Assembly: GCA_050945235.1 (NCBI GenBank)
Contig: JBMNSO010000002.1
Location: 1 to 36,724 of the forward strand
DNA length: 36,724 nucleotides
Origin: Mahellales bacterium
GTDB taxonomy: Bacteria; Bacillota; Clostridia; DUOD01
Direction of reading: 5' to 3'
Shown here: in pieces, positions 21,325 to 36,402 of the stretch
Layout: the number at the start of each line of letters is the position of its first letter
How positions within the stretch are numbered: the first letter of the stretch is position 1
Made by a program: the position numbers and the translations under genes
Notes under the pieces: generated by a model
Database searches by the model: none
What the model saw: the letters and a program-made list of their open reading frames with translations, nothing else
Told to the model about the DNA's origin: nothing

Positions 21325-23961
21325 TTGAATGTTGGAATAATAAGAACCATTTCTGAAAAGTGTGCCCAGTGCTATTCATGCGTGAGAAACTGTCCGGTAA
21401 AGGCGGTAAAGATCAATAACGGTCGTGCCCAGGTAATCCAGGAAAGGTGTATACATTGTGGCAACTGCGTCAAGATATGCTCAAGACAGGCTAAAGAGAT
21501 ATACGACGGAATAAATCCAACCTTGGAAATGATAAGCAAAGGCAGATGCATAGCGATCATTGCCCCCTCCTTTCCAGCAGTATACAAGGAAAACCACGAC
21601 AGGGTGGCAGCCGGGTTAAAGAAACTGGGTTTCAGCGAGGTATGGGAAGTTGCGGTAGGTGCAGAACTGGTAGCCCAGGCATATCAGCAATTGAACTTTA
21701 GTAACGGATGTTATATCAGCTCTGCCTGCCCAGCTGTAATTAACTTGGTACAGAAACACTATCCGAATCTTATATCCAACCTGGTGCCGGTGGTTTCCCC
21801 TGCCATTGCCACCGGTAGGCTCATTAGGCATCTATATGACGATCAGGATTTTAACATTGTCTTTATTGGACCCTGTATAGCTAAGAAAGGTGAAATCAGG
21901 GATCCTGAAGTATCAGGCGTAATAGACGAGGTATTAACCTTTGACGAACTGAATTCCTTGTTCCAAAGGCAGTCCATTGACCTGGGTTCATTGGAAAAGG
22001 TATCCTTTGACGGGTTGAATGCTTCCCTGGCATATCTTTTTCCCCTGTCCGGGGGTTTATTAAAAAACCTTAGCCAACAAAGTGATCTGCTCAACGATAA
22101 TTATATGGTGGTAGACGGGAGCAGCTCAATCAAAGAGATATTCAATAGCCTTAACGACTATAAAGAAAAGATTAATCTCATCGACTGCCTCTTTTGCTCC
22201 GGTTGTATAAATGGACCTTCTGGGGGTAGCGGTGGTAATATCCTGGCAAAGAAACAGGAAATAATATACTATATGAAGTCTATACCCATCGAAGAGCAAG
22301 CACGGGCCAAAAAGGAATTGCTAAGTATACAGCTGGATCTTAAGCGGAATTTTTGCTATAGTGGTCTACGCCTGCCTGCCCCAAGGGAAGAAGACATAAG
22401 AAAGGTTTTAACACAAATCGGGAAAAACACCGACGAGGATCTTTTAAACTGTGGAGCTTGTGGGTATTCCTCTTGCAGGGAAAAGGCCATAGCCGTGTGC
22501 CAGGGCATCGCTGAAAAGGAGATGTGCATGCCCTTTCTCTTGTCCCAGAAGAATTACCTGTTATCGGCACTGGAGGATGAACTGTCAAAGATAAAGGAAT
22601 TGAAGGAAGAGTTGGATATAATAATAGATTCTTCTTACGACGGCATTTGCTTAACCGACGGTAGTGGGGAGGTGCTAAGGACCAACAATGCCTTTGCTAA
22701 GATGCTGCAGTTAAAACCGGAGGACATTACGGGGTTATCCATAAGGGACTTGGAAAAGAACGGTATGATCCACCCTTCTGCTACCATGATGGTGTTGAAA
22801 GCCCGCAAACCCGTTACTTTTCTCCAAGGCTTAAAGTCTGGTAAGCAAGTATTGGCCACCGGTGTCCCTGTATTCGATGAAGCAGGAAATGTAAGCAAGG
22901 TTATAACCAATATAAGGGACTTTGAAGAATTACAAAGAATAAAACGGCGGTTGGATGAGGTGAATTATTCCAACAATGGAATAGAGGATGGAAGGGCGAA
23001 TAAAAAGGCTGAGGCAAAGATAATAGCCTTTAGCGACGTGTTTGGCGAGGTATTGGATTTAGCCAATAGAATAGCCAACGTGGATTCTACAGTATTGGTG
23101 CTGGGAGAATCCGGTGTGGGCAAGGAGGTCATAGTAAGGTATATCCATAGAATAAGCAACAGATCCGACAAACCCTTTGTTAAAATCAATTGTGGCGCTC
23201 TGCCGGAATCGTTAATAGAATCGGAACTTTTCGGGTACGATACCGGCGCCTTCACCGGTGCAAAAAAACAGGGTAAACCGGGATTGTTTGAACTGGCGGA
23301 CAAGGGCATATTATTTCTTGATGAGATAGGGGAACTTCCCCTATCCCAACAGGTGAAGCTGTTACAGGCCATACAGGAAAAAAGGATTGTACGGGTGGGG
23401 GGAACCAAACCCATACCAATAGATGTGAGGATAATAGTGGCTACCAACAGGGACTTGGCAAGGATGGTAAAAAACGGCGAGTTTAGGGCCGATCTTTATT
23501 ACAGGCTCAACGTTGTTCCCATAACCATTCCACCCTTAAGAAAGAGAAGGGATGATATTATTCCCTTGGCTCGCCATTTCTTAAAGGTTTATAACACCAA
23601 GTATTCTACCAGTAGAGAAATTTCCCAACAGGTCAAGGATAGATTCCTCGAATATAAATGGCCGGGCAATGTAAGGGAATTGGAAAATATAATGGAAAGG
23701 CTGGTAGTTACGGCTTCAAGCGATATTATCACCGAAGAAGACCTTCCCCCTGTATTAAAAACTCCTGTGGATACACAGACCGGGTCCGGGAAGGAAATCA
23801 CCCTCCTGCCCCTTAAGAAGGCACTGGAGGAAAGGGAAAAGGAACTGATACTCCAGGCAAGGCAGTTATACGATAGCACCTATAAGATAGCTGAAGTTCT
23901 TGAAGTTAACCAGTCCACCATCGTTAGAAAATTGCAGAAATACCGAAAGGAGGATAAATAA
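21325..23961 (+). CDS. Sigma-54-dependent transcriptional activator with an N-terminal sensory [FeFe]-hydrogenase-like domain and PAS
   Basis: CAQCYSCVRNCP and CIHCGNCVKIC (2x[4Fe-4S]). H-domain-like motifs SSACP, GPCIAKKGE and CSGCINGP. CGACGYSSC-x16-C. PAS (aa ~430-540). AAA+ module with GESGVGKE, GAFTGA and ESELFGY. C-terminal HTH YKIAEVLEVNQSTIVRKL. TTG start after GAGGGGGA. Confidence 0.9.
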   Translation: MNVGIIRTISEKCAQCYSCVRNCPVKAVKINNGRAQVIQERCIHCGNCVKICSRQAKEIYDGINPTLEMISKGRCIAIIAPSFPAVYKENHDRVAAGLKKLGFSEVWEVAVGAELVAQAYQQLNFSNGCYISSACPAVINLVQKHYPNLISNLVPVVSPAIATGRLIRHLYDDQDFNIVFIGPCIAKKGEIRDPEVSGVIDEVLTFDELNSLFQRQSIDLGSLEKVSFDGLNASLAYLFPLSGGLLKNLSQQSDLLNDNYMVVDGSSSIKEIFNSLNDYKEKINLIDCLFCSGCINGPSGGSGGNILAKKQEIIYYMKSIPIEEQARAKKELLSIQLDLKRNFCYSGLRLPAPREEDIRKVLTQIGKNTDEDLLNCGACGYSSCREKAIAVCQGIAEKEMCMPFLLSQKNYLLSALEDELSKIKELKEELDIIIDSSYDGICLTDGSGEVLRTNNAFAKMLQLKPEDITGLSIRDLEKNGMIHPSATMMVLKARKPVTFLQGLKSGKQVLATGVPVFDEAGNVSKVITNIRDFEELQRIKRRLDEVNYSNNGIEDGRANKKAEAKIIAFSDVFGEVLDLANRIANVDSTVLVLGESGVGKEVIVRYIHRISNRSDKPFVKINCGALPESLIESELFGYDTGAFTGAKKQGKPGLFELADKGILFLDEIGELPLSQQVKLLQAIQEKRIVRVGGTKPIPIDVRIIVATNRDLARMVKNGEFRADLYYRLNVVPITIPPLRKRRDDIIPLARHFLKVYNTKYSTSREISQQVKDRFLEYKWPGNVRELENIMERLVVTASSDIITEEDLPPVLKTPVDTQTGSGKEITLLPLKKALEEREKELILQARQLYDSTYKIAEVLEVNQSTIVRKLQKYRKEDK

Positions 23962-24001: not shown

Positions 24002-24019
24002 TAATGCAATGTTGCATTA
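24002..24019. promoter_or_regulatory. Candidate enhancer (UAS 1) for the sigma-54 activator
   Basis: Perfect palindrome taatgcaa-tg-ttgcatta, about 126 nt upstream of the -12 element. Confidence 0.55.
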
Positions 24020-24056
24020 CTTCAAGATGCGGATTATTACTCTTTTCCAGTGCTGT

Positions 24057-24074
24057 TAATGCAATAGTGCATCA
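24057..24074. promoter_or_regulatory. Candidate enhancer (UAS 2)
   Basis: taatgcaatagtgcatca has the same left half-site and a degenerate right half. Its centre is 55 nt from the UAS 1 centre (about 5 helical turns) and about 71 nt from the -12 element. Confidence 0.5.
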
Positions 24075-24093: not shown

Positions 24094-24121
24094 AAAACAA
24101 GGCTAATAGCCTTGTTTTTTA
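24094..24121 (+). terminator. Intrinsic terminator of the regulator gene
   Basis: acaaggct-aat-agccttgt stem-loop followed by tttttt. It ends one base before the -24 element. Confidence 0.75.
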
Positions 24122-24122
24122 T

Positions 24123-24138
24123 TGGCATGAAAGTTGCA
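24123..24138 (+). promoter_or_regulatory. Sigma-54 (-24/-12) promoter of the hydrogenase operon
   Basis: TGGCAT-gaaag-TTGCA matches TGGCAC-N5-TTGCW with correct GG/GC spacing. It lies 60 nt upstream of ATG 24198. Confidence 0.8.
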
Positions 24139-24197
24139 TCTATATAATAGTAGAGTCAAATCAAAAATTGGCAAATGAAAGGAAGGGGAGTATTTCG

Positions 24198-24707
24198 ATG
24201 AGTGTGACCTTTCAGCAGGGAGAACAGGAAGAAATCAGGCTGGTGGAAGAAATAATATCTGCATATGAAGACAAGCCGGGATCTTTGATACCGGTACTCC
24301 ATGAGACTCAAAAGGTACTGGGCTTTTTACCCCGGTGGGCCCAGGAAAGGATTGCCGAAAGGCTTAATATCAATTCCAGTGAAGTAAACAGTGTGGTAAG
24401 TTTTTACTCATTATTTTCCGAAAAGCCCAAGGGCAAGTACTGTATAGGGGTTTGTAAGGGTACTGCCTGTTATGTAAGGGGCTCGGAGGAAATAATCAAA
24501 AAACTGGAAAAGGAACTGGGGATTGAAGTGGGCGATACAACAGATGACGGTAAGTATTCTCTGGAGGTACTAAGATGCCTTGGGGCATGCGGGCTGGGGC
24601 CTGTTGTTACGGTAAACGAGAGGGTGTATACCAGGATGAAACCCGAAAAGGTGCGGGATATGCTACAGGATATCGATGATATGGAAAAAAGGGGTGAGGA
24701 GTCGTGA
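24198..24707 (+). CDS. NuoE/HndA/HydC-like [2Fe-2S] hydrogenase subunit
   Basis: CKGTAC ... CLGAC (NuoE-type Cx4C...Cx3C). GGAAGGGGAG ribosome-binding site 7 nt before ATG 24198; the TTG at 24168 has no ribosome-binding site. Confidence 0.88.
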   Translation: MSVTFQQGEQEEIRLVEEIISAYEDKPGSLIPVLHETQKVLGFLPRWAQERIAERLNINSSEVNSVVSFYSLFSEKPKGKYCIGVCKGTACYVRGSEEIIKKLEKELGIEVGDTTDDGKYSLEVLRCLGACGLGPVVTVNERVYTRMKPEKVRDMLQDIDDMEKRGEES

Positions 24708-25072
24708 CAGGTATGGATGTTTACAATCGGCTGCGGGAAAACCTAATGAAGGACCGGGAAAGTGAACAAAGGGAATGGGTTATCAATGTACAGCTGGGGA
24801 TGTGCTGTTCAAGCGGTAGGGGGTTCGAACTCCTCAATACCATTCGAAAAACCATTGAAGAGAATTATCTTGATAATATAACGGTACGCAGTACCGGTTG
24901 TATGGGTATGTGCAGTTATGAACCGATTATGGAGGTAGCAGGTCCAAGGCAGCAGTCGGTTACCTATTGCATGGTTACGCCTCAAAGGGCTAGGTTAATA
25001 GTTTTAAACCATATTCTAAAGGGTATTGTAATTAAACCATGGACACTGGAAGGAAAGGGCGTGGGGTTATAA
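24704..25072 (+). CDS. Small thioredoxin-like [2Fe-2S] ferredoxin subunit (HndB-like)
   Basis: 122 aa with CCSSG ... GCMGMCSYEP. Overlaps both neighbours. Same position as hndB in the hndABCD order. Confidence 0.7.
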   Translation: MTGMDVYNRLRENLMKDRESEQREWVINVQLGMCCSSGRGFELLNTIRKTIEENYLDNITVRSTGCMGMCSYEPIMEVAGPRQQSVTYCMVTPQRARLIVLNHILKGIVIKPWTLEGKGVGL

Positions 25073-28000
25073 TGGGCTTTATCAGAAATCATGTTCTAGT
25101 TTGTGGCGGAGGCGGTTGTCATTCATCAGGCACTTCAGATCTGGTTGCCCGCCTTAATGAGGAAATCGCAAAAAAGGGTTTGCAAGATGAGATAAAGGTG
25201 GTTGTTACCGGTTGTATGGGCCTGTGCGCCTTAGGCCCGGTTATGATCATTTATCCCGAGGGAGTATTCTATAAAAAGGTAGCTGTTGAAGACATACCCG
25301 AGATAGTGGACCAACATTTATACTTGGGTATAACCGTAGAGAGGTTGTTATACGAGGATCCCGAGGATGGAAGGAAGCTCCCCACCATCAGGGATATACC
25401 CTTTTTCGCAAAGCAGAAAAAAATAGTTCTGAGAAACGTGGGACTTATAGATCCCCATAGGATAGAAGAATATATTGCCTTTGACGGGTATTTTGCCCTG
25501 GCAAAGGTATTGTCTTCCATGAAGCCGGAGGATGTCATCCAAGAGATGATAAAATCAGGTCTTAGAGGCAGGGGGGGTGCAGGTTTTCCCACAGGCCTTA
25601 AGTGGAAGTTTACTGCCCAGGCCAAGGGTGATGTGAAATACGTAACCTGTAATGCCGATGAAGGTGACCCCGGAGCCTATATGGACAGGAGTATAATAGA
25701 AGGCGATCCCCATACATTGATAGAGGGTATGGCCATTGCCGGCTATGCCATCGGCTCCAACCAGGGATATGTTTATATTAGGGCGGAATATCCCATGGCT
25801 GTGGAGAACTTATCGAGGGCTATTGAGCAGGCAAAGAGCTATGGCCTATTAGGTGAAAACATAATGGGCTCGGGTTTTGATTTTGATCTTGAGATAAGGG
25901 TAGGTGCCGGTGCCTTTGTCTGCGGTGAGGAAACTGCCCTGTTGGCTTCTATAGAGGGTAGGAGGGGTGAACCTCGGCCCAAACCGCCCTTCCCGGCTAA
26001 CCAAGGTCTGTGGGATAAGCCCACACTGTTAAGTAATGTGGAGACGTATGCTAATGTTGCTCCCATTATACTGAAGGGTGCCGAATGGTTTAAGAGCATT
26101 GGAACGGACAAGAGCCCTGGTACTAAGGTATTTGCCTTGGCCGGAAATGTAAGAAATACCGGGCTGGTGGAAGTGCCCATGGGTACACCCTTAGGTGATA
26201 TTATATATGACATCGGAGGGGGCATAATAGACGGGAAGCCCTTTAAAGCTGCCCAAACCGGGGGGCCGTCGGGGGGCTGTATTCCAAAAAACGAATTAAA
26301 TGTGCCGGTAGATTATGAGTCTTTGACCGAGCTGGGAACCATTATGGGTTCCGGTGGCCTTATTATAATGGATGAGGATACTTGTATGGTGGACCTGGCA
26401 AAATTCTTTTTGGATTTTGTTCAGGAGGAATCTTGCGGTAAATGTACGCCCTGTCGTGTAGGTACCAGGCGCATGAAGGAGATACTGGAGAGGATTACCC
26501 GGGGCGAAGGCCGGGAGGGTGATATTGAGACCCTGGAAAAACTGGGTAACGAGATAATAGACACTGCCCTTTGTGGGTTAGGTCAAACAGCCCCCAAGCC
26601 TGTCCTCAGCACCATAAAATATTTCAGGGACGAATATGAGGCCCATATCAAGGACAAAAAATGCCCATCTTCCCTGTGCGCTTCATTATTTACTTCACCC
26701 TGTGCCAATGCATGTCCGGCGGGGGTAGATGTACCCAGATATATAGAGTACATTCAAAGGGGATTGTATTATAAAGCGGTGGAGGTCATTAAAGAGAAAA
26801 ATCCTTTGCCGGCTATCTGCGGCCGAATATGCCACAGCCCCTGTGAGGATAAGTGTAGGCGTGCACAGGTGGATGAACCCATGGCCGTTAGGTATTTAAA
26901 GAGGTTTGCTTCCGATTATGAACAGAAAAACTGGGAGAATATATATTTCAATAACCTCCCGTCCAAGAGCGAAGTGGTTAAGGACAAAAAGGTTGCCATC
27001 GTAGGTGCCGGCCCGGCAGGGCTGACTGCGGCTTATTATCTGGCCCGATGGGGCTATCCTGTTACAATATTTGAACAATACGAGGTATTGGGCGGTATGC
27101 TGGCCCTGACTATTCCGGAGTACCGTTTGCCCATGGATGTACTGCAAAAGGAGATTGAGCATATTCTGGCATATGGAGTCGATGTCGTGACAGGAGTAAA
27201 GCTGGGAAGGGATATCCAGCTGAAAGAGCTTAGGGAGCAATACGATGCCGTATTTCTTGCCTTAGGTGCCCATAGATCATTGAACCTCGGTATCCCAGGG
27301 GAGGATGCGGAGGGTGTAATAGATGCACTGACCTTTTTAAAGGCTGTACGTTTGAACCAACCGGTTTCCCTGGGTAAAAGGGTAGCGGTGGTTGGTGGCG
27401 GTAATTCCGGTATTGATGCAGCACGAGTTGCCTTAAGAAAGGGAGCGGAGGATGTATCGATCCTGTACAGGAGGAAGAAGTACGACATGCCGGCTCAGCA
27501 CCATGAGATCGAGGAAGCTACCAAGGAAGGAATAGCTATCCATGAACTTATTACCCCGGTCAGGGTATTGACTGACGATAATAATAAGGTAATAGGTCTG
27601 GAATGCGTAAAAATGGAAATGGGCAAGTTCGACAGCTCAGGCAGGAGAAGGCCTCAGCCCATACCCAATTCTAATTTCATAGTGGATGTGGATACAGTAA
27701 TAGTTGCCATAGGCATGGCCTGTGACGTAAAAGGTATAGACATGGAATCCATTAGAAGGGACTATAAGGATATTCTTCAGGTGGACCATAAAACCATGAT
27801 GAGTGACCTCGACGGTGTATTTGCCGGGGGTGACTGTGTAAACGGGGCGGATTATGTAATAAACGCCATTGCAGATGGAAGGAGAACAGCCTTTTCCATT
27901 GACAGTTTTTTAGGCGGGCGCCAAAGGGAACTGGAAAAGGAACAGAAAATTGAACGGAAGGTCTTCGGTGAAATTATAGAAAAGCCAATGGCCAGGGTCA

Positions 28001-28119
28001 AAACCGAACTGTTGCTGGTGGATAAACGAACAAGAAACTTTTGCGAAGTAGAACTGTGTATGGGCGAAGAAGAGTGCAAAAAAGAGGCCTCCAGATGTCT
28101 GCGCTGTGATGTTAAATAA
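25072..28119 (+). CDS. NuoF/HndC/HydB-like flavoprotein subunit fused to a C-terminal GltD/NfnB-like NAD(P)H:FAD oxidoreductase module
   Basis: N-terminal CGGGGC...GCMGLC ([2Fe-2S]). GRGGAGFPTGLKWKF (FMN/NADH site). ESCGKCTPCR ([4Fe-4S]). From about 26660: CANACPAG, NPLPAICGRICHSPCEDKCRR, VAIVGAGPAGLTAAYYL (FAD) and VAVVGGGNSGIDAAR (NAD(P)H). ATG 25072 overlaps the preceding stop (TAATG). Confidence 0.88.
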   Translation: MGFIRNHVLVCGGGGCHSSGTSDLVARLNEEIAKKGLQDEIKVVVTGCMGLCALGPVMIIYPEGVFYKKVAVEDIPEIVDQHLYLGITVERLLYEDPEDGRKLPTIRDIPFFAKQKKIVLRNVGLIDPHRIEEYIAFDGYFALAKVLSSMKPEDVIQEMIKSGLRGRGGAGFPTGLKWKFTAQAKGDVKYVTCNADEGDPGAYMDRSIIEGDPHTLIEGMAIAGYAIGSNQGYVYIRAEYPMAVENLSRAIEQAKSYGLLGENIMGSGFDFDLEIRVGAGAFVCGEETALLASIEGRRGEPRPKPPFPANQGLWDKPTLLSNVETYANVAPIILKGAEWFKSIGTDKSPGTKVFALAGNVRNTGLVEVPMGTPLGDIIYDIGGGIIDGKPFKAAQTGGPSGGCIPKNELNVPVDYESLTELGTIMGSGGLIIMDEDTCMVDLAKFFLDFVQEESCGKCTPCRVGTRRMKEILERITRGEGREGDIETLEKLGNEIIDTALCGLGQTAPKPVLSTIKYFRDEYEAHIKDKKCPSSLCASLFTSPCANACPAGVDVPRYIEYIQRGLYYKAVEVIKEKNPLPAICGRICHSPCEDKCRRAQVDEPMAVRYLKRFASDYEQKNWENIYFNNLPSKSEVVKDKKVAIVGAGPAGLTAAYYLARWGYPVTIFEQYEVLGGMLALTIPEYRLPMDVLQKEIEHILAYGVDVVTGVKLGRDIQLKELREQYDAVFLALGAHRSLNLGIPGEDAEGVIDALTFLKAVRLNQPVSLGKRVAVVGGGNSGIDAARVALRKGAEDVSILYRRKKYDMPAQHHEIEEATKEGIAIHELITPVRVLTDDNNKVIGLECVKMEMGKFDSSGRRRPQPIPNSNFIVDVDTVIVAIGMACDVKGIDMESIRRDYKDILQVDHKTMMSDLDGVFAGGDCVNGADYVINAIADGRRTAFSIDSFLGGRQRELEKEQKIERKVFGEIIEKPMARVKTELLLVDKRTRNFCEVELCMGEEECKKEASRCLRCDVK

Positions 28120-28139: not shown

Positions 28140-29861
28140 ATGAGTATGATAGAGTTAACCATTGATAACAAAAGGATCAAAATCAATAAAGATAGTACTA
28201 TTTTGGAAGCCGCCAGGCATGCAGGCATAACTATACCGACCCTTTGCTATTTGGAGGGAGTGAACCAGATAGGCAGCTGTCGGGTATGCGTTGTTGAAGT
28301 TAAGGGTGCCAAGAACCTGGTACCCTCCTGTATAACAAAGGTGCAGGATGGTATGGAGGTGGTTACCAATTCCGAAAGGGTGCGCAGCGCCCGCAGGACT
28401 ATGGTGAATTTATTACTGTCCAACCACCCTGACGACTGCCTGGCCTGCGGCAAGAACCAGAAGTGTGAGTTACAGAAACTGGCACACCAGCTTAATATAA
28501 GGGAAAACCCCTTTGAAGGCCAACCGTCGAAGGCTGTGTATGATGACAGTAGCCCGGCCATAATAAGGGATTCATCGAAATGTATTTTGTGTAGGCGCTG
28601 TCTGACGGTTTGTAACAGCATACAGAAAGTGGGTGTTATAGCACCCCTGGGTAGAGGTTATGACACAGTTATATCCCCTGCCTATGGCCAGCCTATAATG
28701 GAGGCCACATGTGTACAATGCGGACAGTGCACCACGATTTGCCCTACCGGTGCGTTAATGGAGAGATCCTATATAGAGGATGTGTGGGGTGCCTTGGCCG
28801 ATCCGTCAAAACATGTGGTTGTTCAGATAGCTCCAGCAATAAGGGCATCCATAGGCGAATGTTTCGGCTATGAACCGGGGACCGTGCTAACCGGTAAGCT
28901 GGTTAGCGCAGTAAAAGCCTTAGGCTTTGACAAGGTATTCGATACCAACTTCACTGCGGACCTTACCATAATGGAAGAGGGTTCAGAACTACTCCATAGG
29001 ATAAAAAGCGGCGGGAAGCTTCCCATGATAACTTCATGCAGCCCTGGGTGGATAAACTTTGTGGAGCAGTTCTACGGCGATATTTTAGGGCATATATCTA
29101 CATGCAAATCCCCACAGCAGATGTTCGGTCCAGTAATAAAGACCTATTACGCCCAGAAGATGGGAATAGACCCTAATAATATTTACAGTGTTTCGGTAAT
29201 GCCCTGTACCGCTAAAAAGTATGAGGCCCGGAGGGAGGAAATGCGGTCCAGCGGTTTTTGGGATGTGGATGCGGTTTTAACCACCCGGGAACTGGCTGCC
29301 ATGATCAATGAAGCGGGCATTCAGATGGATAAAATAGAGGAGCAGCACTTTGATATACCCTTCGGAGAGGGTAGCGGTGCCGGTGCAATATTCGGCAATA
29401 CCGGCGGTGTGATGGAGGCCGCCCTGAGGACCGTTTATAAGCTGGTGACCGGCAATGAACTTGAAAACATTGAACTGACCGATGTCCGTGGCCTTGAGGG
29501 CGTTAAGGAAGCCACAATAAACCTGGAAGGTAAGGATGTATCGGTGGCAGTGGTCCATGGCTTGGGAAACATTAGGGAGATATTGGATCAGATAAGGGAG
29601 GGTAAAAGTCCCTATACCTTCATTGAGGTTATGTGCTGTCCCGGCGGATGTATAGGTGGTGGAGGTCAACCCATACCCACTAATGATGAAATAAGGAAAA
29701 AGAGGATAGAGGGTTTGTATAAAGCGGACCGTAACCTGGAATTTAGGCGTTCCCATGAGAATCCGTATGTACAAATGCTTTATGAAGAATTCTTGGGTGC
29801 ACCTTTAGGTGAAATGTCCCATAAATTACTCCATACCCATTATAAAGACAGACGAATATAA
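28140..29861 (+). CDS. hydA: [FeFe]-hydrogenase catalytic subunit (M3 architecture, HndD/HydA-like)
   Basis: N-terminal 2Fe-2S, HPDDCLACGKNQKC, CILCRRCLTVC and CVQCGQCTTICP. H-cluster motifs ITSCSPGW (L1 variant), MPCTAKKYE (L2) and EVMCCPGGCIGGGGQP (L3). AGGAGGGGAG ribosome-binding site. Confidence 0.93.
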   Translation: MSMIELTIDNKRIKINKDSTILEAARHAGITIPTLCYLEGVNQIGSCRVCVVEVKGAKNLVPSCITKVQDGMEVVTNSERVRSARRTMVNLLLSNHPDDCLACGKNQKCELQKLAHQLNIRENPFEGQPSKAVYDDSSPAIIRDSSKCILCRRCLTVCNSIQKVGVIAPLGRGYDTVISPAYGQPIMEATCVQCGQCTTICPTGALMERSYIEDVWGALADPSKHVVVQIAPAIRASIGECFGYEPGTVLTGKLVSAVKALGFDKVFDTNFTADLTIMEEGSELLHRIKSGGKLPMITSCSPGWINFVEQFYGDILGHISTCKSPQQMFGPVIKTYYAQKMGIDPNNIYSVSVMPCTAKKYEARREEMRSSGFWDVDAVLTTRELAAMINEAGIQMDKIEEQHFDIPFGEGSGAGAIFGNTGGVMEAALRTVYKLVTGNELENIELTDVRGLEGVKEATINLEGKDVSVAVVHGLGNIREILDQIREGKSPYTFIEVMCCPGGCIGGGGQPIPTNDEIRKKRIEGLYKADRNLEFRRSHENPYVQMLYEEFLGAPLGEMSHKLLHTHYKDRRI

Positions 29862-29865
29862 CAAT

Positions 29866-29908
29866 AAAACAAAGGACGGCCTGTACTTCAAGGCCGTCCT
29901 TTGTTTTT
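29866..29908. terminator. Bidirectional intrinsic terminator between hydA and folT
   Basis: 16-nt arms, aaaacaaaggacggcc and ggccgtcctttgtttt, with a T-run on the plus strand and an A-run that reads as a T-run on the minus strand. Confidence 0.85.
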
Positions 29909-30448
29909 CTATCTATGCTTGGGAACAATTTTATATAACATTTTTGTTAGCATACTAATTATCATAACATAAACTGGAATGAGTACAAGCCGTGTGATTA
30001 TCCTGGGGGGTAGGAATACCAGGAAGGATTTATCGAAGTACAGGGTCAGCCAGTAGGTGTTTAAGAATATGTTGGCAATTAAATCTGTTATGGCTATTAC
30101 TCCTAGTAAAGAAAGCCATGTCCATTCTTCCCTTTGCCTCAAGATAGCAAATAATCCGGGTATCATTCCGGTAAGCATGGCCGATACGGTAAAACCGGGG
30201 AAATAGGCCCCGCCCATGGGATTGATTAAGTAACCGATGATATCTGCCATAAAACCGGTAGCACCGCCGAATATAGGACCCAATAGCAAACCGCTGAATA
30301 TAATCGGTATTTCACCAAAACTTAGGCGCAGGGCCAGGGCACCGCCTATGGGTACCGTTGTACCTAAAAACCTGGTTAGTACTATGCTGGTAGCGGTAAG
30401 CAATGCGGCATAGGCTATTCTCCTGCTTTTATTTATATCATTCAACAA
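29909..30448 (-). CDS. folT: Folate-family ECF transporter S component
   Basis: Multi-TM protein (AYAALLTATSIVLTRF..., SFGEIPIIFSGLLLGP). AAGGAGG lies 8 nt before TTG 30448. Preceded by a THF riboswitch. Confidence 0.8.
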   Translation of the reverse strand: MLNDINKSRRIAYAALLTATSIVLTRFLGTTVPIGGALALRLSFGEIPIIFSGLLLGPIFGGATGFMADIIGYLINPMGGAYFPGFTVSAMLTGMIPGLFAILRQREEWTWLSLLGVIAITDLIANIFLNTYWLTLYFDKSFLVFLPPRIITRLVLIPVYVMIISMLTKMLYKIVPKHR

Positions 30449-30530
30449 TAAAAGCACCTCCTTTCTCTTTGAATGGCAAAGATACCACATCAAAGAGATT
30501 GCCGGTACTTTTAATCATTCTTTGACATGG

Positions 30531-30623
30531 GCAGCGGACGCAGTATTGTACCGCAGGCCATAGGCCTTTCGTTTAAGGGCAACTTCCCATCCCTTAACAC
30601 TTAACGCACAATACCTACTCTGC
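30531..30623 (-). promoter_or_regulatory. THF (tetrahydrofolate) riboswitch
   Basis: The minus strand reads GCAGAGUAGGUAUUGUGCGUUAAGUGUUAAGGGAUGGGAAGUUGCCCUUAAACGAAAGGCCUAUGGCCUGCGGUACAAUACUGCGUCCGCUGC. This aligns block for block with the Eubacterium siraeum THF aptamer as I recall it (AGAGUAG..GCGUUAAGUGU..GGGAUG..ACGAA..GCGGU..UCCGCU). Confidence 0.9.
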
Positions 30624-30645
30624 TCATTCAATATCAATTACAAAA

Positions 30646-30674
30646 AGTATACCAGATAAGATCCGTTGTAGCAA
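30646..30674 (-). promoter_or_regulatory. Candidate sigma-A promoter of the THF riboswitch-folT unit
   Basis: Minus strand TTGCTA-17 nt-TATACT, about 22 nt upstream of the aptamer. Confidence 0.5.
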
Positions 30675-30868
30675 TGTAATATCTTGAAAATTCGTGTAAT
30701 ATTCTGCTATTATTCAATAAAACATATATTTTGAGAATTCCCTTAAAAATAAACGCAAATTCATGTGCTTAAGCTATTCAATACCTTTTATTAAATCTTC
30801 CCGTTTAATGTATTCTATAATAGTTGATGAATTCCTTTTTTGATTAATTTTTTGCAATAAATCACCTA

Positions 30869-30897
30869 TTGACAAATCCGTCAAAATACTTTAATAT
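30869..30897 (+). promoter_or_regulatory. Candidate sigma-A promoter of tRNA-Thr
   Basis: TTGACA-17 nt-TAATAT, 29 nt upstream of the tRNA 5' end. Confidence 0.55.
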
Positions 30898-30925
30898 ATG
30901 ATGGTGGTTGATTCAAATAATATGT

Positions 30926-31002
30926 GCTGATGTAGCTCAGTAGGTAGAGCACTTCCTTGGTAAGGAAGAGGTTCACGGGTTCGATTCCCGTCATCAGCTC
31001 CA
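30926..31002 (+). tRNA. tRNA-Thr (anticodon GGU) with encoded CCA
   Basis: Hand-folded cloverleaf: acceptor GCTGATG/CATCAGC, D arm GCTC-AGTAGGTA-GAGC, anticodon arm CTTCC-TTGGTAA-GGAAG, T arm ACGGG-TTCGATT-CCCGT. The variable region appears to be 6 nt. Confidence 0.85.
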
Positions 31003-31010
31003 GTTACAAT

Positions 31011-31052
31011 CCTTTGAATGCTTGATATGACAGCGTTTGAAGGTATTTTTTT
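31011..31052 (+). terminator. Intrinsic terminator after the tRNA
   Basis: cctttgaatgc ... gcgtttgaagg (11 pairs counting G-U) followed by tattttttt. Confidence 0.55.
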
Positions 31053-31226
31053 GTGATTTTTATCAAAGCAGGTTCAGCCATGGCAGTCATATCGACTTAA
31101 TACAGTCTTTGAAAAAGGATATAAAATGAAGATTAGATCCACACTTAGTCTAATAAATTGTATAATGAGATAAAGGCACATTTGTAGATTTATGTGCAAT
31201 AAGTAAATAGTTTGGGAGGGAGCTTC

Positions 31227-31595
31227 GTGAGCAGAAATTTTAAGAATAGAATAGTATCTTTAATTGTTACTACGCTGATTCTCATGGTAATTTTGTATTT
31301 GATTTTTTTCTTGAAGTACATTGATATTTCGGTAATATTAGCAATCTACTTGCCAATTTGGATTATCGGGGTTATAGCGGCCTTGCTTGGTAAAGTCGTA
31401 TTTGCGAATGTTACTATAATTTTTGCAGGAATAGGTCTTATTTCAGAATATTTAGTTCATACATATAATAAGTCTCATCCAAATATGTCAGGAGCACTTT
31501 TGAATACTCTAATTCTATTAGTTGGTGTTATATTGGGAGTTGTGCTTCAAATTTTGAGTACAAGGAAAACAAAAAGCAATGTAAATAATCGCTAG
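31227..31595 (+). CDS. Small hypothetical membrane protein (about 4 TM)
   Basis: GGGAGGGA ribosome-binding site before GTG 31227. Hydrophobic throughout and very AT-rich. Confidence 0.6.
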   Translation: MSRNFKNRIVSLIVTTLILMVILYLIFFLKYIDISVILAIYLPIWIIGVIAALLGKVVFANVTIIFAGIGLISEYLVHTYNKSHPNMSGALLNTLILLVGVILGVVLQILSTRKTKSNVNNR

Positions 31596-31680
31596 TGGAT
31601 TTATGGTTTTATATTTTTAAAAAGTATATCAGTAGTTTATTACGACTTAATAATAGAACAACACTGTGGGGGGAATAACA

Positions 31681-31857
31681 ATGAAAAGAGATGCAACATC
31701 AATTGGAATTATAGGGATACCTGACGATGCAATTATTAAAAAGTTAGAAAAAGAATTAGGAAAGCCTGTTAAAAAGATTGAAAAAGACGGGAAAATTATT
31801 TTGTTGGTTGGCAGAGGACTGTTTAAGAAGAAAATCGTAATACCATTTAAAAGATAA
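31681..31857 (+). CDS. Hypothetical small basic protein (58 aa)
   Basis: GGGGGGA ribosome-binding site 7 nt before ATG 31681 (MKRDATSIGIIGIPDD...). Lys-rich. No motif recognised. Confidence 0.45.
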   Translation: MKRDATSIGIIGIPDDAIIKKLEKELGKPVKKIEKDGKIILLVGRGLFKKKIVIPFKR

Positions 31858-32037
31858 CTCTTGATGCACATTATTTATATAAAGCGTTGCAACCGTTGTT
31901 ACTATGAAGTTGAATCGTTTATACAAATTTAAGTTATATACAATTTTAGTTATATATTAAACGCATTTAGAAAAAAGAATATGGTTATATAATGCTTGTC
32001 TGTCCTTACAAGACAATAATATCCGGAGGATTTTTTA

Positions 32038-33228
32038 ATGTATTCGTTTTTAATTATAATAATATATATTGCCTTTATCAGTCTTGGACTGCCGGATTCC
32101 CTTCTCGGCTCGGCATGGCCAGTTATGTATGGACAGCTTGCTATACCAGTGTCTTATGCCGGAGTTATAACAATGATTATTGCTGGTGGAACGATAATAT
32201 CCAGTCTTATGTCTGATAAGCTGACGAGAAAACTGGGAGCAGGGCTTATAACTGCAATCAGTGTGATGATGACGGCGGTGGCACTATTTGGATTTTCTAT
32301 TTCTAATTCTTTTATCCTACTTTGTCTATGGTCTATTCCATACGGACTTGGTGCAGGAGCAGTCGATGCTGCTTTGAACAACTATGTTGCTTTGCATTAT
32401 GCCTCTCGCCATATGAGCTGGCTGCATTGCTTTTGGGGAGTTGGGGCGGCAATCAGTCCATACATCATGGGGTATTGCTTGACGGGCGGCTATGGATGGA
32501 ATAGCGGCTACCGCGCAGTCTCGATGATACAGATTGTGTTGACAGTCATCCTTTTTATCAGCCTGCCGCTCTGGAAAAGGAAAAACAGCGTTGACAGCAG
32601 CCCTGAGACTCGGACAGCGGCTCCGAGCCTGGCGCAAGCTCTGAAAATACGAGGAGTCAAGCTCATCCTGTTGACCTTTTTCGGCTATTGCGCGCTCGAG
32701 TCAACGACCGGCTTGTGGGCAAGCAGTTATCTCGTTGAATTTCGCGGAATTGACTCTGAAACTGCCGCCAGATTTGCATCGTTGTTCTTCTTGGGAATAA
32801 CCTTTGGACGGTTTATTAGTGGGTTTATTTCGGACAAGGTTGGAGACAGGCTGCTCATTCGATGTGGTATATTGGTAGTTATCTACGGCGTTATCCTGGT
32901 AGGGGTCCCCTTAGGAAGCAATTATACCGCTTTGGCAGGGCTTGTTATTATCGGCCTTGGCTGTGCCCCTATTTATCCGTCAATAATCCACTCGACACCG
33001 TCGAATTTCGGGCAGGAGAATTCCCAGGTAATTATTGGAATACAAATGGCAAGCGCCTATGTTGGCAGCACTTTTGTTCCGCCGATCTTTGGATTAATTG
33101 CAGATCATTTGAACATTGGTTTGTATTCTATATTCTTGCTTTTCTTTGCGATCCTCATGCTGATGATGTCCGAGATGCTGAACAAAACGATTACCGTAGA
33201 AAAGGAGCAGGTCAAAGCCCTGGGGTGA
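32038..33228 (+). CDS. MFS transporter
   Basis: 396 aa with about 12 TM and an MFS loop motif (MSDKLTRKLG). GGAGG lies 8 nt before ATG. Confidence 0.85.
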   Translation: MYSFLIIIIYIAFISLGLPDSLLGSAWPVMYGQLAIPVSYAGVITMIIAGGTIISSLMSDKLTRKLGAGLITAISVMMTAVALFGFSISNSFILLCLWSIPYGLGAGAVDAALNNYVALHYASRHMSWLHCFWGVGAAISPYIMGYCLTGGYGWNSGYRAVSMIQIVLTVILFISLPLWKRKNSVDSSPETRTAAPSLAQALKIRGVKLILLTFFGYCALESTTGLWASSYLVEFRGIDSETAARFASLFFLGITFGRFISGFISDKVGDRLLIRCGILVVIYGVILVGVPLGSNYTALAGLVIIGLGCAPIYPSIIHSTPSNFGQENSQVIIGIQMASAYVGSTFVPPIFGLIADHLNIGLYSIFLLFFAILMLMMSEMLNKTITVEKEQVKALG

Positions 33229-33240
33229 AACAAGCACTAT

Positions 33241-33279
33241 AAAAAAGCCGAAAGGAGACACGTAAGTATCTCCTTTCGG
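33241..33279 (-). terminator. Intrinsic terminator of the SDR gene (may also stop the MFS transcript)
   Basis: ccgaaaggaga / tctcctttcgg 11-bp stem. The A-run at 33241-46 reads as a U-run on the minus strand. Confidence 0.7.
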
Positions 33280-33306
33280 GCACAAGTTATACCCTACCGT
33301 TTGCGT

Positions 33307-34065
33307 CTAGATCGACGTATACCCGCCATCCACGATGATATTCTGGCCGGTAATATAAGAAGCTTCATCGCTTGCAAGCATTACCGCAATAGGGTTTAGT
33401 TCGCCCTCGTTGCCATAGCGCCCAAGCGGGACAGAGGCTTTCATAAAATTGGTGAATGCTTCGGTTTTCAATGTATCCCTGGTCAATTCTGTCTCAAAGT
33501 ATCCAGGGCTTATCGCATTGCACGTTATATTGTACTTGGCCAATTCAGCCGCAACGGCTCTGGTAAAGTTGATCACTCCCCCTTTGGAAGAATGATAGGC
33601 GACGGTATCCATTGCCGTGTTTCCAACCTGGCCATAGATGGAGGCAATATTGATGATCCGGCCATACTTTTTTTCAACCATATATTTCGCGAATGCCCTT
33701 GTCACCTTGAAGACACTGGTCAAATCGGCTTCCATCGTGAAATCCCATTCCTCATCGGTCATTTCAAGGACGCCTGCATTCTTTGATGCCCCAGCATTAT
33801 TGACCAGGATATCTACTTTGCCATACTCTTCTATGGCAAGTTCGGCTGCTCTATTTATTTGTTCTGTATTCGTAACATCACATTGAATTGGAAGGCATCG
33901 CACTCCTCTAGACCTGAAATCCGCAGCGATTACCTCCAGTCTTTCCATTCGTCTGGCCATGATAACCAGATCGGCGCCCTGCTCGGCAAAACCTTGCGCC
34001 ATCTGAAGCCCTAATCCTGAAGAAGCCCCAGTTACTACTGCTACGCGACCTTTTAACGAAAACAC
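33307..34065 (-). CDS. Short-chain dehydrogenase/reductase (FabG / gluconate-5-dehydrogenase-like)
   Basis: TGASSGLG, NNAG and a YHSSK catalytic motif. 252 aa. Confidence 0.88.
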   Translation of the reverse strand: MFSLKGRVAVVTGASSGLGLQMAQGFAEQGADLVIMARRMERLEVIAADFRSRGVRCLPIQCDVTNTEQINRAAELAIEEYGKVDILVNNAGASKNAGVLEMTDEEWDFTMEADLTSVFKVTRAFAKYMVEKKYGRIINIASIYGQVGNTAMDTVAYHSSKGGVINFTRAVAAELAKYNITCNAISPGYFETELTRDTLKTEAFTNFMKASVPLGRYGNEGELNPIAVMLASDEASYITGQNIIVDGGYTSI

Positions 34066-34438
34066 GAAAAACCTCCCATGAGTACTAGATGTTTTACACC
34101 GGTAAACAAGCCCGAAATAAGAGTATCATAATCTAATTTCTATATTACCACCACTCTTAAAATCCAGCCAACGAATCGTGCATGGCGTGAGTTCATTGCC
34201 CGACCGAGCCTGCACTGGTCACGAGTATCAATTTCACTATGAATTCATGCATCACTATTCAGCGTTCTTTAGTTCTTGAGGCAGTATAAATGTTGTGATG
34301 TGATGCCAGGCCTACGATGCAATGGTATAAAGACACCTTGAACCTATTGCTAAAATGCGGTGAAACTGGTAAAATGGAACATCAAGCGGAGCTGACCGTT
34401 TGACAACGTCACGGCAGTATCATATCAGGAGGGTAACC

Positions 34439-35005
34439 ATGAGAAGTTTCGCTACACTGGATTTGCAGTATGCGCACAGGTTCTATGGGTTCAGAGGCGA
34501 GGCACAGTATTTGCACGGCCATACGGGAATACTGACGATCGAAGTTGAAGACACCATCAACGAGGGAGTCAATATGGTATTTCCATGCAATGAAATCAAG
34601 AAAATTGCATGGGAAGTACTACAAAATTTTGACCACGCGCTAATTTTAAGGGAAGACGACCCATTGCTTCCCGCGATCCTCGGAGTTTACGAGGCACAAG
34701 GCATTAAGGACGGCGCGCCAAGCAATAGGCAAAAAGGCCCCGCTTTCAAGACGGAACTCGCAACAGCGTACCCGGAATGTCGGTTGGTTGTTACGAAAGA
34801 AACGATGACCGTCGAGGGAATGATTAAAATAGTTTACGATTTGCTAAAAGACAAACTAAATATCGCTAAAATCACATTTACAAGCGGAGTAAACGGCGCC
34901 TCAGAAGAATACGAGCCTAAAAACAAGATCGACCGTTGTCCGTTATGCGGTATTGCGCTAAACGAAAAGGGCGTGTGCCCCAAGTGCGGGTACAAGAAAG
35001 CCTAA
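34439..35005 (+). CDS. 6-pyruvoyl-tetrahydropterin synthase / QueD-like T-fold protein with a C-terminal zinc ribbon
   Basis: AHRF...YLHGHTG (His triad pattern of PTPS/QueD). C-terminal CPLCG-x9-CPKCG. AGGAGGG ribosome-binding site before ATG 34439. Confidence 0.6.
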   Translation: MRSFATLDLQYAHRFYGFRGEAQYLHGHTGILTIEVEDTINEGVNMVFPCNEIKKIAWEVLQNFDHALILREDDPLLPAILGVYEAQGIKDGAPSNRQKGPAFKTELATAYPECRLVVTKETMTVEGMIKIVYDLLKDKLNIAKITFTSGVNGASEEYEPKNKIDRCPLCGIALNEKGVCPKCGYKKA

Positions 35006-35022
35006 CTCAAGCTCTGAATTTG

Positions 35023-35068
35023 ATCAGGCACTCTATGCCAAATATGCGTAGAGTGCCTGATTTTATTT
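35023..35068 (+). terminator. Intrinsic terminator
   Basis: Perfect 13-bp stem, atcaggcactcta / tagagtgcctgat, then ttttattt. Confidence 0.8.
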
Positions 35069-35072
35069 ACCG

Positions 35073-35699
35073 TCAAATTGGGGCTTTTCTCCCCCGAATC
35101 GTGGTCATACCGTTCATGACGAGGTACACCGCAACGATGATTGACCCGAACAAGTCCACGTACCGCGTCGCAGGCGCAGCAGGAGCAACGACAACGCACA
35201 CCAGCGCGAGCGTTACACAAGCATCCACGAGCGACTTGGCCCGGTAGAGCTTGCTTTGTACGGCGAGTATGGCATCCGGCTTTTCACGATCGAGTTTGCG
35301 GTAGCGCAGCCAGAACCACGAGTTTGTCGTTACGCCCAACACCGCAATGACGAGGCCCGGAATGACGTTCCCTTTTTCTGTATCAGGCGAGAACAGCGCG
35401 ATGAACAGGATAACAGCACCAGACAGACACATTGCCGCACCAACGCTCAAGTTTCCCGTGCGTTCCAGTTTATTCTTACGCACCACGTCCAGTTCGCCGC
35501 TCTTGTGCAGAACGCGAAATACGATCCATGATACGATGATAGCCGCCAGTTCCGCCGTGCGCCGAATAAAGTCCGCGAGCTGCGTAGAGGATCGGCCCAC
35601 AAAAAGCGCCATACCCAGGATGATGGGGCCGGGCGAACTCAGCACTACTGAAGCGAGCAGCGTACGCTCGCCTGCTTTTTGTTTCACAATATCACCCAC
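35073..35699 (-). CDS. Integral membrane protein, tentatively cation-efflux (CDF) transmembrane-domain-like
   Basis: 208 aa with 5-6 TM and Asp residues in TM segments (LADFIRR, SLVDACV). The GTG start overlaps the upstream stop by 8 nt. Function is weakly supported. Confidence 0.5.
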   Translation of the reverse strand: MGDIVKQKAGERTLLASVVLSSPGPIILGMALFVGRSSTQLADFIRRTAELAAIIVSWIVFRVLHKSGELDVVRKNKLERTGNLSVGAAMCLSGAVILFIALFSPDTEKGNVIPGLVIAVLGVTTNSWFWLRYRKLDREKPDAILAVQSKLYRAKSLVDACVTLALVCVVVAPAAPATRYVDLFGSIIVAVYLVMNGMTTIRGRKAPI

Positions 35700-36402
35700 C
35701 CCACAAGCGAATCAACGGGATCAAGATCGCCACCGCCGCGAACGGGCAGGTCACTGTATCCATACCGCCCCTGGTGTACAGTTCCACGACTGCACATACC
35801 GCCGCGGTAACTGCCGCAATCGGGATGTAGCCATGCCACTCCACGGTGCCGTATATAATCAAGACAACCAGCACCGAGACAAAGGACACGACAAACATCG
35901 CCAGAGTCCCCTCAAGGCTCTTGCGCCCCTCAACTAATCTCCCCTCTATATAGTGCCGCCCGAAGCGTTTCCCGACCAATGCTGCCGCTGCGTCGCCCAG
36001 GCCCCAGGCAGACACCGCTGCAATTAGCAGATACTTTTCTCCGAGCCAACCACAGCAAACGCAGATCAGTACCACGTACATACTAACCGCCATGACCAGA
36101 CTATTCTTGATTTCTCCGCGTTTGCGCTCTGTAAGCAGTTCGGAATAGCCGGGTATGCGCTCGGCGAGCGCAAGAGCCGGGAATATCGTTATCGCAAAGA
36201 TGATTGCCGCAATTGCCGATACCCACCATGTCTCGAACGCATATATCCAGATAAATACTGAACCCAGGAATACGATGTGCAAGATTTTTCGCGAGACCTC
36301 TGAAGGCAGTGGAACAACCCGCCGCAAGGTAAGCACACCCGCCACGCAGACCACAAAATAGCCAAGTAGTATCCCGTAACCTTGTGCAAGCTCAAGTTGC
36401 AT
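35692..36402 (-). CDS. CTP-dependent polyprenol / diacylglycerol kinase-like membrane protein (VTE5/DGK1/SEC59 - CdsA superfamily)
   Basis: GLGDAAAALVGKRFGRH and KSLEGTLAMF. Real start is ATG 36402 (MQLELAQGYG) after GGGGGA. The 5' extension of the ORF-track ORF to 36636 is an alternate frame over the marR gene. Confidence 0.7.
   Translation of the reverse strand: MQLELAQGYGILLGYFVVCVAGVLTLRRVVPLPSEVSRKILHIVFLGSVFIWIYAFETWWVSAIAAIIFAITIFPALALAERIPGYSELLTERKRGEIKNSLVMAVSMYVVLICVCCGWLGEKYLLIAAVSAWGLGDAAAALVGKRFGRHYIEGRLVEGRKSLEGTLAMFVVSFVSVLVVLIIYGTVEWHGYIPIAAVTAAVCAVVELYTRGGMDTVTCPFAAVAILIPLIRLWGG

Follow-up and report, generated by a model that had tools for sequence, protein, structure and literature searches.

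The 36,724-nucleotide stretch of Mahellales bacterium DNA analysed here (the window; GenBank assembly GCA_050945235.1, contig JBMNSO010000002.1) contains, directly upstream of a hydrogenase operon, a gene for an 878-residue regulator in which a module related to [FeFe]-hydrogenases is joined to a sigma-54 activator. Our analysis indicates that this regulator is probably a sensory [FeFe]-hydrogenase module which controls the hydC/hydB-gltD/hydA operon as a one-component sigma-54 activator. To a more detailed proposal we give an even chance, namely that the activator responds to H2, that an H-cluster module with a Cx2C loop gates the AAA+ domain of the same chain through an extra-cluster helix and a PAS domain, and that the protein is the founding example of a sublineage of sensors with fused outputs. 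The sensor type was known before, and so was the domain architecture as a catalogue entry; the novelty lies in the Cx2C sublineage and in the fused sigma-54 output, for which a promoter and a binding site are predicted.

The coding sequence of the regulator starts with TTG, and a ribosome-binding site (GAGGGGG) lies 8 nt 5' of the start. Pfam domains are arranged in the order of a two-[4Fe-4S] ferredoxin domain, Fe_hyd_lg_C, FeS (PF04060), PAS, Sigma54_activat, AAA+ lid and HTH (Table 1). The same architecture is present in all 119 best full-length matches to the regulator, whose database names are generic ('sigma 54-interacting transcriptional regulator', 'PAS domain S-box protein'). The nearest of these homologues, with 82% identity, comes from a Clostridiales metagenome-assembled genome (MAG). 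All eight cysteines of the ferredoxin-like domain (C13, C16, C19, C23 and C42, C45, C48, C52) are conserved and align with the F-cluster cysteines of the hydrogenase CpI, and the H-domain belongs to the hydrogenase superfamily with a score of 159 bits against PF02906 (Fe_hyd_lg_C), where the cut-off is 22. The features of a sigma-54 enhancer-binding protein are likewise all present: the AAA+ domain, an intact Walker A motif GESGVGKE (residues 594–601, nt 23104–23127), a sigma-54 contact loop which reads exactly GAFTGA (residues 641–646, nt 23245–23262) and the C-terminal helix-turn-helix.

For comparison of the H-cluster site, the CpI sequence with its native numbering was taken from the PDB alignment of the window HydA, and the numbering was verified at C299, C300, C355, C499, C503, M353 and M497. 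A MAFFT alignment of 242 sequences contained the regulator, CpI, the window HydA and 119 sigma-54-fused and 120 kinase-fused homologues. In this alignment CpI C300, C355, C499 and C503 correspond to C135, C184, C291 and C294 of the regulator, and these four residues are invariant in all 239 relatives; the reservation made in the preliminary description of this DNA, that the cysteines might not be equivalent to H-cluster ligands, is not borne out. K187 (CpI K358), E190 (E361) and P159 (P324) are invariant in the relatives as well, whereas P81/S82 (P231/S232) are invariant or near-invariant. Our alignment agrees with the earlier statement that the L2 equivalent GPCIAKKGE keeps Cys, Lys and Glu, as G, P, C, K and E of this stretch are invariant across the relatives. 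It was also correctly stated, to the exact codons, that the L1 equivalent is SSACP, with Ala in place of the proton-relay Cys of TSCCP. MAFFT and HMMER both place A134 at the position of CpI C299, where the relatives have Pro, Ala or Ser and none has Cys. Independently of MAFFT, HMMER pairs 'issaCPa' of the regulator with 'ftsCCPaw' of TmHydA, and 'gPCiaKKgE' with 'mPCtaKKfE'.

The proton-transfer pathway of group A enzymes, C299-E279-S319-E282-R286, is not kept in the regulator, and neither are M353 and M497. CpI E279, E282, R286 and S319 correspond to A119, Q122, a gap and V154, positions at which the relatives are variable or hydrophobic. M353 corresponds to G182, with Gly invariant in the relatives, and M497 to L289, with Leu near-invariant. 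Sensory-type hydrogenases are recognised by replacement of the relay Cys299 and by a small residue in place of M353, and A134 and G182 show both. The local sequence of TmHydS, obtained from published mutagenesis primers, reads PFITT-A-CPVVVN, DFPIVFV-G-PCIAKKS and FIEA-S-ACYGSC, of which the L1 and L2 stretches are strikingly similar to those of the regulator. Five further cysteines in the sensor half are not conserved: C75 (21547–21549), C129 (21709–21711), C288 (22186–22188), C344 (22354–22356) and C392 (22498–22500). C288 was considered as an alternative ligand in a Cx2Cx2C arrangement and was rejected because Val, Ile or Ala occupies this position in the relatives.

The position of the H-domain in the family was analysed with a neighbour-joining tree of 29 H-domains and 60 bootstraps, whose small reference set had no HydDB or Nar1 members. 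The primer sequence of the TmHydS A131C variant had no exact match in a scan of genome contigs; degenerate back-translation of FITTACPVVVN led to a TmHydS orthologue in a Thermotogota MAG (L008), which was used as the TmHydS proxy and is followed by HydC, HydB and HydA. Among its further neighbours, a PP2C/SpoIIE-type phosphatase beside the HydS orthologue and a Rex-like regulator looked recognisable on reading the translated open reading frames. An M2e homologue from a Thermoanaerobacteraceae MAG (L004), with Ser and not Ala at the C299 position, stands in for TamHydS. Group A is monophyletic in 60/60 bootstraps with the regulator H-domain outside it, and the sigma-54-fused and kinase-fused forms together are monophyletic, also in 60/60. 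The Thermotogota HydS orthologue joins this clade in 58/60 bootstraps, while the M2e protein joins the sensory clade with weaker support (45/60). The regulator is 34.5% identical to the Thermotogota HydS, 27% to the M2e protein and 22–28% to group A.

An AlphaFold model of residues 1–420 is confident (predicted local distance difference test, pLDDT, 92.6; predicted template modelling score, pTM, 0.92), and the top 50 PDB matches found for it with Foldseek are all [FeFe]-hydrogenases, including CbA5H, DdH, TmHydA, T. kivui HydA1 (8a6t) and CpI (template modelling score ~0.69, E ~1e-20). No sensory-type hydrogenase is among these 50 matches. The preliminary description's view of a sensory rather than catalytic H-domain is supported by the grouping with the TmHydS orthologue and by the lost proton pathway. 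Sequence comparison supports the assignment of the first 420 residues to a putative-sensory [FeFe]-hydrogenase module of group C type, and not to a catalytic one.

The L3 equivalent of the regulator is where it departs from known H-cluster sites. The preliminary description had read FCSGCINGP (residues 290–298, nt 22192–22218) as a loop which loses GGGQP and keeps CxxGC. The loss of GGGQP is confirmed (now G---P); however, the cysteines are spaced as C291-S-G-C294, that is CxGC or Cx2C, which is one residue shorter than C499-H-G-G-C503 of CpI. The canonical ExMxCxxGCxxGGGQP is therefore not matched, owing to a one-residue deletion between the cysteines and a three-residue deletion of GGQ. The one-residue deletion is shared by the regulator and all 239 close relatives, with the consensus D-x-L-F-C-x-G-C-I-(N/D)-G-P, whereas L3 is Cx3C in CpI, the window HydA, the M2e protein, TmHydS (A-C-Y-G-S-C) and the Thermotogota TmHydS orthologue. 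C291, G293 and C294 are invariant among the relatives, which argues for strong constraint on the shortened loop.

Among 1.84 billion representatives scanned with HMMER, at least 964 are relatives at E<=1e-30, and the best 148 of these were typed for L3, giving 69 of Cx2C and 75 of Cx3C type. Fused domains are frequent in the 69 Cx2C relatives (HATPase_c in 40, HisKA in 38, sigma-54 AAA+ in 11 and GGDEF in 4). The 75 Cx3C relatives, in contrast, are nearly all of ~570 residues with only FeS and PAS, like TmHydS, and a fused output was seen in one with a sigma-54 domain and one with a kinase. Cys at the C299 position occurs in 12 of the 75 Cx3C relatives and in none of the 69 Cx2C relatives. Because the L3 type tracks the architecture, the regulator is placed, on sequence grounds, in a large output-fused Cx2C sublineage (kinase, sigma-54, GGDEF) with a distinct predicted H-cluster loop. 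One hydrogenase-filtering pipeline demands CxxxC (PMC11216029), and surveys with this requirement would drop the whole sublineage.

After the H-domain, the Cx2Cx4Cx16C motif noted earlier is present at residues 376–401, inside a PF04060 match (residues 374–403, E=2.8e-07). Its four cysteines C376, C379, C384 and C401 are invariant in the relatives; C392, inside the x16 spacer, is not conserved and is common to the 82% homologue and 28 of the 120 kinase-fused relatives. The motif is also present in the Thermotogota HydS orthologue, and a C-terminal Cx2Cx4Cx16C has been defined as a feature of sensory HydS (PMC8163306). In the regulator a PAS domain follows the putative extra cluster, which is the arrangement of group C (M2f) proteins. 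The preliminary description had given Ala at the C299 position and this four-Cys motif before PAS as features of both TmHydS and TamHydS; the first two are indeed common to both, but PAS belongs to TmHydS only (PMC8163306, PMC10055695, PMC10407848). In the full-length AlphaFold 2 model, the helix of residues 402–436 starts at the last cluster Cys and leads without a break into PAS, whose beta-sheet core (E440–532) follows. The domains of this model are confident while their overall arrangement is loose (pTM 0.54), and disordered linkers span residues 545–564 and 816–828.

The gap between the regulator and hydC contains the predicted control sites. The sequence TAATGCA-N4-TGCATTA, with at most two mismatches, has two matches in the 36.7-kb window against 0.24 expected, and both are located in this gap, 49–121 bp upstream of the -24/-12 promoter at 24123. 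Between the palindromes and the promoter is a hairpin with a T-run, which was missed by the terminator scan and folded separately; it is likely the terminator of the regulator transcript, judged from its sequence.

Seven homologue loci, with regulators 44–58% identical to that of the window, were compared. They are from Lucifera, Caloranaerobacter, a Thermoanaerobacteraceae MAG (L004), Iocasia, Wukongibacter, a Peptococcaceae MAG and a metagenome contig (L001; NCBI protein-cluster label 'Clostridia bacterium'). In 7/7 loci the regulator is directly upstream of a hydC..hydA operon, a GG-N10-GC promoter is present in the regulator-hyd gap, and the same palindrome follows the stop codon of the regulator with 1–3 copies per gap. 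Over the eight loci including the window, 17 of 21 palindrome-like and 8 of 9 promoter-like matches fall within this gap. An adjoining group A hydrogenase of HydABC type, by which sensory HydS proteins are also recognised, is encoded in the window and in 7/7 homologue loci.

Two of the loci surveyed around relatives show other arrangements of sensors and enzymes. The Thermoanaerobacteraceae locus (L004 1–16693) has two sensor and hydrogenase sets in tandem, with each sensor type beside its own enzyme. In the first set, a gene of the M2e (TamHydS) type is accompanied by DRTGG, HATPase and PHP genes and by a classical hydCBA; the second consists of the sigma-54-fused sensor with hydC/hydB-gltD/hydA. 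In L009 (7001–16043), a kinase-fused Cx2C relative is encoded immediately upstream of a cluster that resembles a membrane-bound group 4 [NiFe]-hydrogenase and has NADHdh, Oxidored_q6, Complex1_30kDa and NiFeSe_Hases domains. Because the sensor adjoins this cluster, it is possible that an [FeFe]-derived sensor controls a [NiFe] enzyme there. A further kinase-fused relative (L010) lies beside HydB-GltD/HydA and response regulators.

These observations can be combined into a possible mechanism. H2 would react slowly at the H-cluster and thereby set the state, whether redox or conformational, of the chain of clusters. This state might be passed through the helix starting at C401 to the PAS domain and on to the AAA+ domain, where oligomerisation or ATPase activity would change. 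Conservation of the TAATGCA-N4-TGCATTA palindromes at 24002–24074 suggests that the helix-turn-helix positions the regulator on them, and the GAFTGA loop would then remodel sigma-54 RNA polymerase at 24123–24138 and in this way control hydC, hydB-gltD, hydA and the gene for the small ferredoxin.

Several points weigh against an H-cluster that senses H2 in this protein. All the characterised H-cluster proteins checked are Cx3C, unlike the Cx2C and G-P of the regulator, and no biochemical work on any Cx2C member was found in a limited literature search. The M497L variant of CpI is reportedly without a properly integrated [2Fe] site (PMC10055695), and the K358 equivalent is Lys in 59 of the 69 Cx2C relatives, in what is a very gappy alignment. 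In a survey of Hydrogenedentota, the H-cluster motifs could not be located in group C1 proteins of the kinase type, and H2 sensing by these was called into question (PMC11406978); these proteins may belong to the same sublineage as the kinase-fused relatives described here. Neither hydEFG nor rpoN is present in the 36.7-kb window. Finally, the C-terminal cluster of TamHydS stays unreduced under 1 atm H2 (PMC13104023), so that a simple redox relay is unlikely; for this reason, and by analogy with TamHydS, it is more likely that a signal would pass the C-terminal cluster by a conformational route than by redox relay.

The unusual loop with its lost GGGQP, the Leu at the M497 position and the doubts of the Hydrogenedentota survey would fit a hydrogenase-derived FeS redox sensor without the [2Fe] subcluster, a bacterial counterpart of Nar1, which reports the redox state of ferredoxin or NAD(P)H to the sigma-54 domain. 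F-clusters like those at the N-terminus exchange electrons with ferredoxin. We nevertheless regard this explanation as unlikely. The equivalents of K358, P231/S232, P324 and E361, whose sole known role is to hold [2Fe] and its CN ligands, are conserved in the 239 relatives, which disfavours a Nar1/Narf-like family; no Nar1 or Narf protein is among the PDB matches of the sequence and structure searches, in which no Nar1 reference was compared. The shortened loop itself is strongly constrained, and TamHydS, which also has Leu at the M497 position, still binds the cofactor (PMC8163306). The links to hydrogenase genes are consistent, and the genome should also carry the HydEFG maturases, since the regulated operon encodes a group A HydA. 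For the regulator module we infer H-cluster binding and slow turnover, as the preliminary description did, and we state them as inferences because L3 is Cx2C and no biochemistry was found for the sublineage.

It is improbable that an H-cluster is present and that the physiological signal is another small ligand, CO or O2, and not H2. Carboxydocella and Thermincola, the sources of two catalogued proteins with the same architecture, are carboxydotrophs. Sensory HydS enzymes also react unusually with CO and O2 (PMC8163306). However, the regulated operon encodes a hydrogenase in 8/8 loci, with no CO dehydrogenase nearby, and most hosts of the regulator homologues are ordinary fermentative Clostridia. 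A further explanation, by which a catalytically active hydrogenase in the N-terminal half is incidentally fused to a regulator, is very improbable. It would fit the fold, the presence of all four Cys ligands and that of the F-clusters. Against it, none of the group A proton pathway is kept, other residues stand in place of M353 and M497, a C-terminal domain resembling a small subunit is lacking, the H-domain falls outside group A in every bootstrap, and the similarly substituted TmHydS and TamHydS are weakly active.

A sensory module with a fused activator can be compared with several known systems. TmHydS has A131, G177 and S267 at the C299, M353 and M497 positions (PMC10055695), and TamHydS has A137, Ser and Leu (PMC8163306). 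Both carry Cx2Cx4Cx16C, both are missing the whole group A proton pathway, and the activity of both is low (PMC8163306, PMC10055695, PMC10407848). The regulator resembles TmHydS in its two N-terminal [4Fe-4S] motifs, Ala at C299, Gly at M353, GPCIAKK in L2, the Cx2Cx4Cx16C followed by PAS, and a HydABC-type hydrogenase encoded next to the gene. It differs in L3, as TmHydS has Cx3C (ACYGSC) with Ser at M497 where the regulator has Cx2C with Leu, and in the fused AAA+ and helix-turn-helix output, as TmHydS ends after PAS. With TamHydS the regulator shares Ala at C299, Leu at M497, the C-terminal Cx2Cx4Cx16C cluster and a gene position upstream of a bifurcating hydrogenase, and homologues of the two occur together in the L004 locus. 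TamHydS, however, has Ser at M353 and a proton path of its own (E252/E289), and it lacks PAS and a fused output.

The sensor module is most closely related to the kinase-fused H-domain proteins (HydDB group C), which are 43–47% identical to it, have a Cx2C L3 of the same form (D-x-L-F-C-x-G-C-I-N-G-P), share its FeS motif and likewise lie in a hydrogenase neighbourhood. In contrast to the regulator, they have HisKA and HATPase_c directly after the FeS motif and no PAS, so that their signal would go through a separate response regulator. In the [NiFe] regulatory hydrogenase systems HoxBC-HoxJ-HoxA and HupUV-HupT-HupR, a slow sensor hydrogenase controls an NtrC-family activator of hydrogenase genes; the metal site is unrelated, and three separate proteins act with a phosphorelay. 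The logic of the regulator would be the same, with the difference that its sensor and activator are in one chain.

The catalogue of Nie et al. 2019 (PMC6615313) includes sigma-54 enhancer-binding proteins which begin with 'Fer4-Fe_hyd_lg_C-FeS', namely CFE_2753 of Carboxydocella and TherJR_2992 of Thermincola, and GAFTGA is present in both. The entries are domain lists, and 'hydrogenase' occurs once in the main text of that article, in a figure legend; a term search of it found no regulon, no binding site and no analysis of H-cluster residues for either protein (PMC6615313). In a limited search, no mention of the fused sigma-54 architecture was found in hydrogenase reviews or in the HydS literature, and no functional description of it.

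Table 1. Features of the regulator gene, the gap downstream of it and the hydrogenase operon in the window.
Feature	Position (nt)	Strand	Details
Regulator coding sequence	21325..23961	+	878 aa; open reading frame list, Pfam domains, 119 full-length homologues with the same architecture
Two-[4Fe-4S] ferredoxin-like domain	21346..21489	+	aa 8-55; Fer4_10/Fer4_9 matches
H-domain, predicted [FeFe]-hydrogenase large-subunit fold	21547..22218	+	aa 75-298; PF02906 E=1.6e-46
L1 equivalent SSACP	21718..21732	+	codons 132-136; A134 = CpI C299, C135 = CpI C300
L2 equivalent GPCIAKKGE	21868..21894	+	aa 182-190; G182 = M353, C184 = C355, K187 = K358, E190 = E361
L3 equivalent D287-C-L289-F-C291-S-G-C294-I-N-G-P298	22183..22218	+	Cx2C; L at M497; GGGQP replaced by G-P
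Putative extra [4Fe-4S] site, C376-x2-C379-x4-C384-x16-C401	22450..22527	+	pattern match; PF04060
Predicted continuous helix from C401 to PAS core	22528..22632	+	aa 402-436, 35 residues; AlphaFold 2 full-length model
PAS domain	22609..22932	+	aa 429-536; PAS, PAS_9, PAS_4 matches
Sigma-54 interaction AAA+ domain	23023..23523	+	aa 567-733; PF00158 E=5e-69
C-terminal helix-turn-helix DNA-binding domain	23812..23943	+	aa 830-873; HTH_50 match
Candidate upstream activator site 1	24002..24019	.	TAATGCAATGTTGCATTA; perfect palindrome
Candidate upstream activator site 2	24057..24074	.	TAATGCAATAGTGCATCA; 1 mismatch
Hairpin and T-run	24094..24118	+	RNA fold -12.9 kcal/mol, z=-3.3; between palindromes and promoter
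Predicted sigma-54 promoter, TGGCAT-N5-TTGCA (-24/-12)	24123..24138	+	TGGCATGAAAGTTGCA; only exact match in window
hydC-like NuoE-type [2Fe-2S] subunit	24168..24707	+	PF01257 E=4e-51
Thioredoxin-like [2Fe-2S] ferredoxin-type small subunit	24704..25072	+	122 aa; N-terminal domains of NfnB, HoxF, HydB in PDB
HydB-like NuoF module fused to GltD/NfnB-like NAD(P)H oxidoreductase module	25039..28119	+	1026 aa
Catalytic group A (M3) HydA	28140..29861	+	573 aa; Fe_hyd_lg_C 9e-103 and Fe_hyd_SSU
Terminator closing the operon	29866..29907	.	17-bp stem

The operon downstream of the regulator has four genes. The first in-frame start of hydC is the TTG at 24168; the ATG at 24198, which is preceded by GGAAGGGGAG, is likely the real start and would give a leader of ~50 nt after the sigma-54 promoter. 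The 122-residue small subunit encoded next has no Pfam match and shares 35% identity across 55 residues with the N-terminus of the following gene product; an unannotated open reading frame of similar size occurs within the same operon in L001–L004, L006 and L007. The third gene encodes the HydB fusion with Complex1_51K, NADH_4Fe-4S, Fer4_20 and Pyr_redox_2 domains, of which the NuoF part comprises the flavin mononucleotide domain and NADH_4Fe-4S. Judged by its GltD/NfnB-like module (Fer4_20 and Pyr_redox_2), the fusion protein may have a second nicotinamide site. In L002, L004, L005 and L007 the regulator is likewise followed by this fusion, which in L001 is divided over separate gene calls; HydB is plain in L003 and L006, with 430 residues.

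The closing gene encodes HydA, whose PDB matches include 8a6t HydA1 (1.7e-198) and CpI (3e-150). The L1 of the window HydA is TSCSPGW, with Ser at the position of the CpI C300 ligand and the relay Cys kept. An L1 of this type is also present in the HydAs checked from L001–L007 and L010 and, by PDB alignment, in A. woodii HydA1, and L1 is TSCCP in T. kivui HydA1, CpI and the Thermotogota HydA. The flanks of the window (1–20300 and 30000–36724) contain housekeeping genes for arginine and carbamoyl-phosphate synthesis, tsaBDE, nadE and tyrS, together with genes for an ABC-2 exporter, an amidase, an ECF S-component and an MFS transporter.

A protein such as the regulator would not surprise a specialist. 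Its value is in the unusually direct test which it offers of a question still called open, as the sensory role of [FeFe]-hydrogenases in groups C and D is still termed putative (PMC8924675) and according to the latest TamHydS study the critical step still missing is to identify the signalling partner (PMC13104023). In the regulator the output partner is fused to the sensor, and a predicted promoter and candidate sites are defined; therefore it would be a direct test system for H2 sensing by HydS proteins, in which the question becomes a reporter or ATPase assay. If our proposal is true, the H-cluster site of the Cx2C sublineage would differ from every characterised one.

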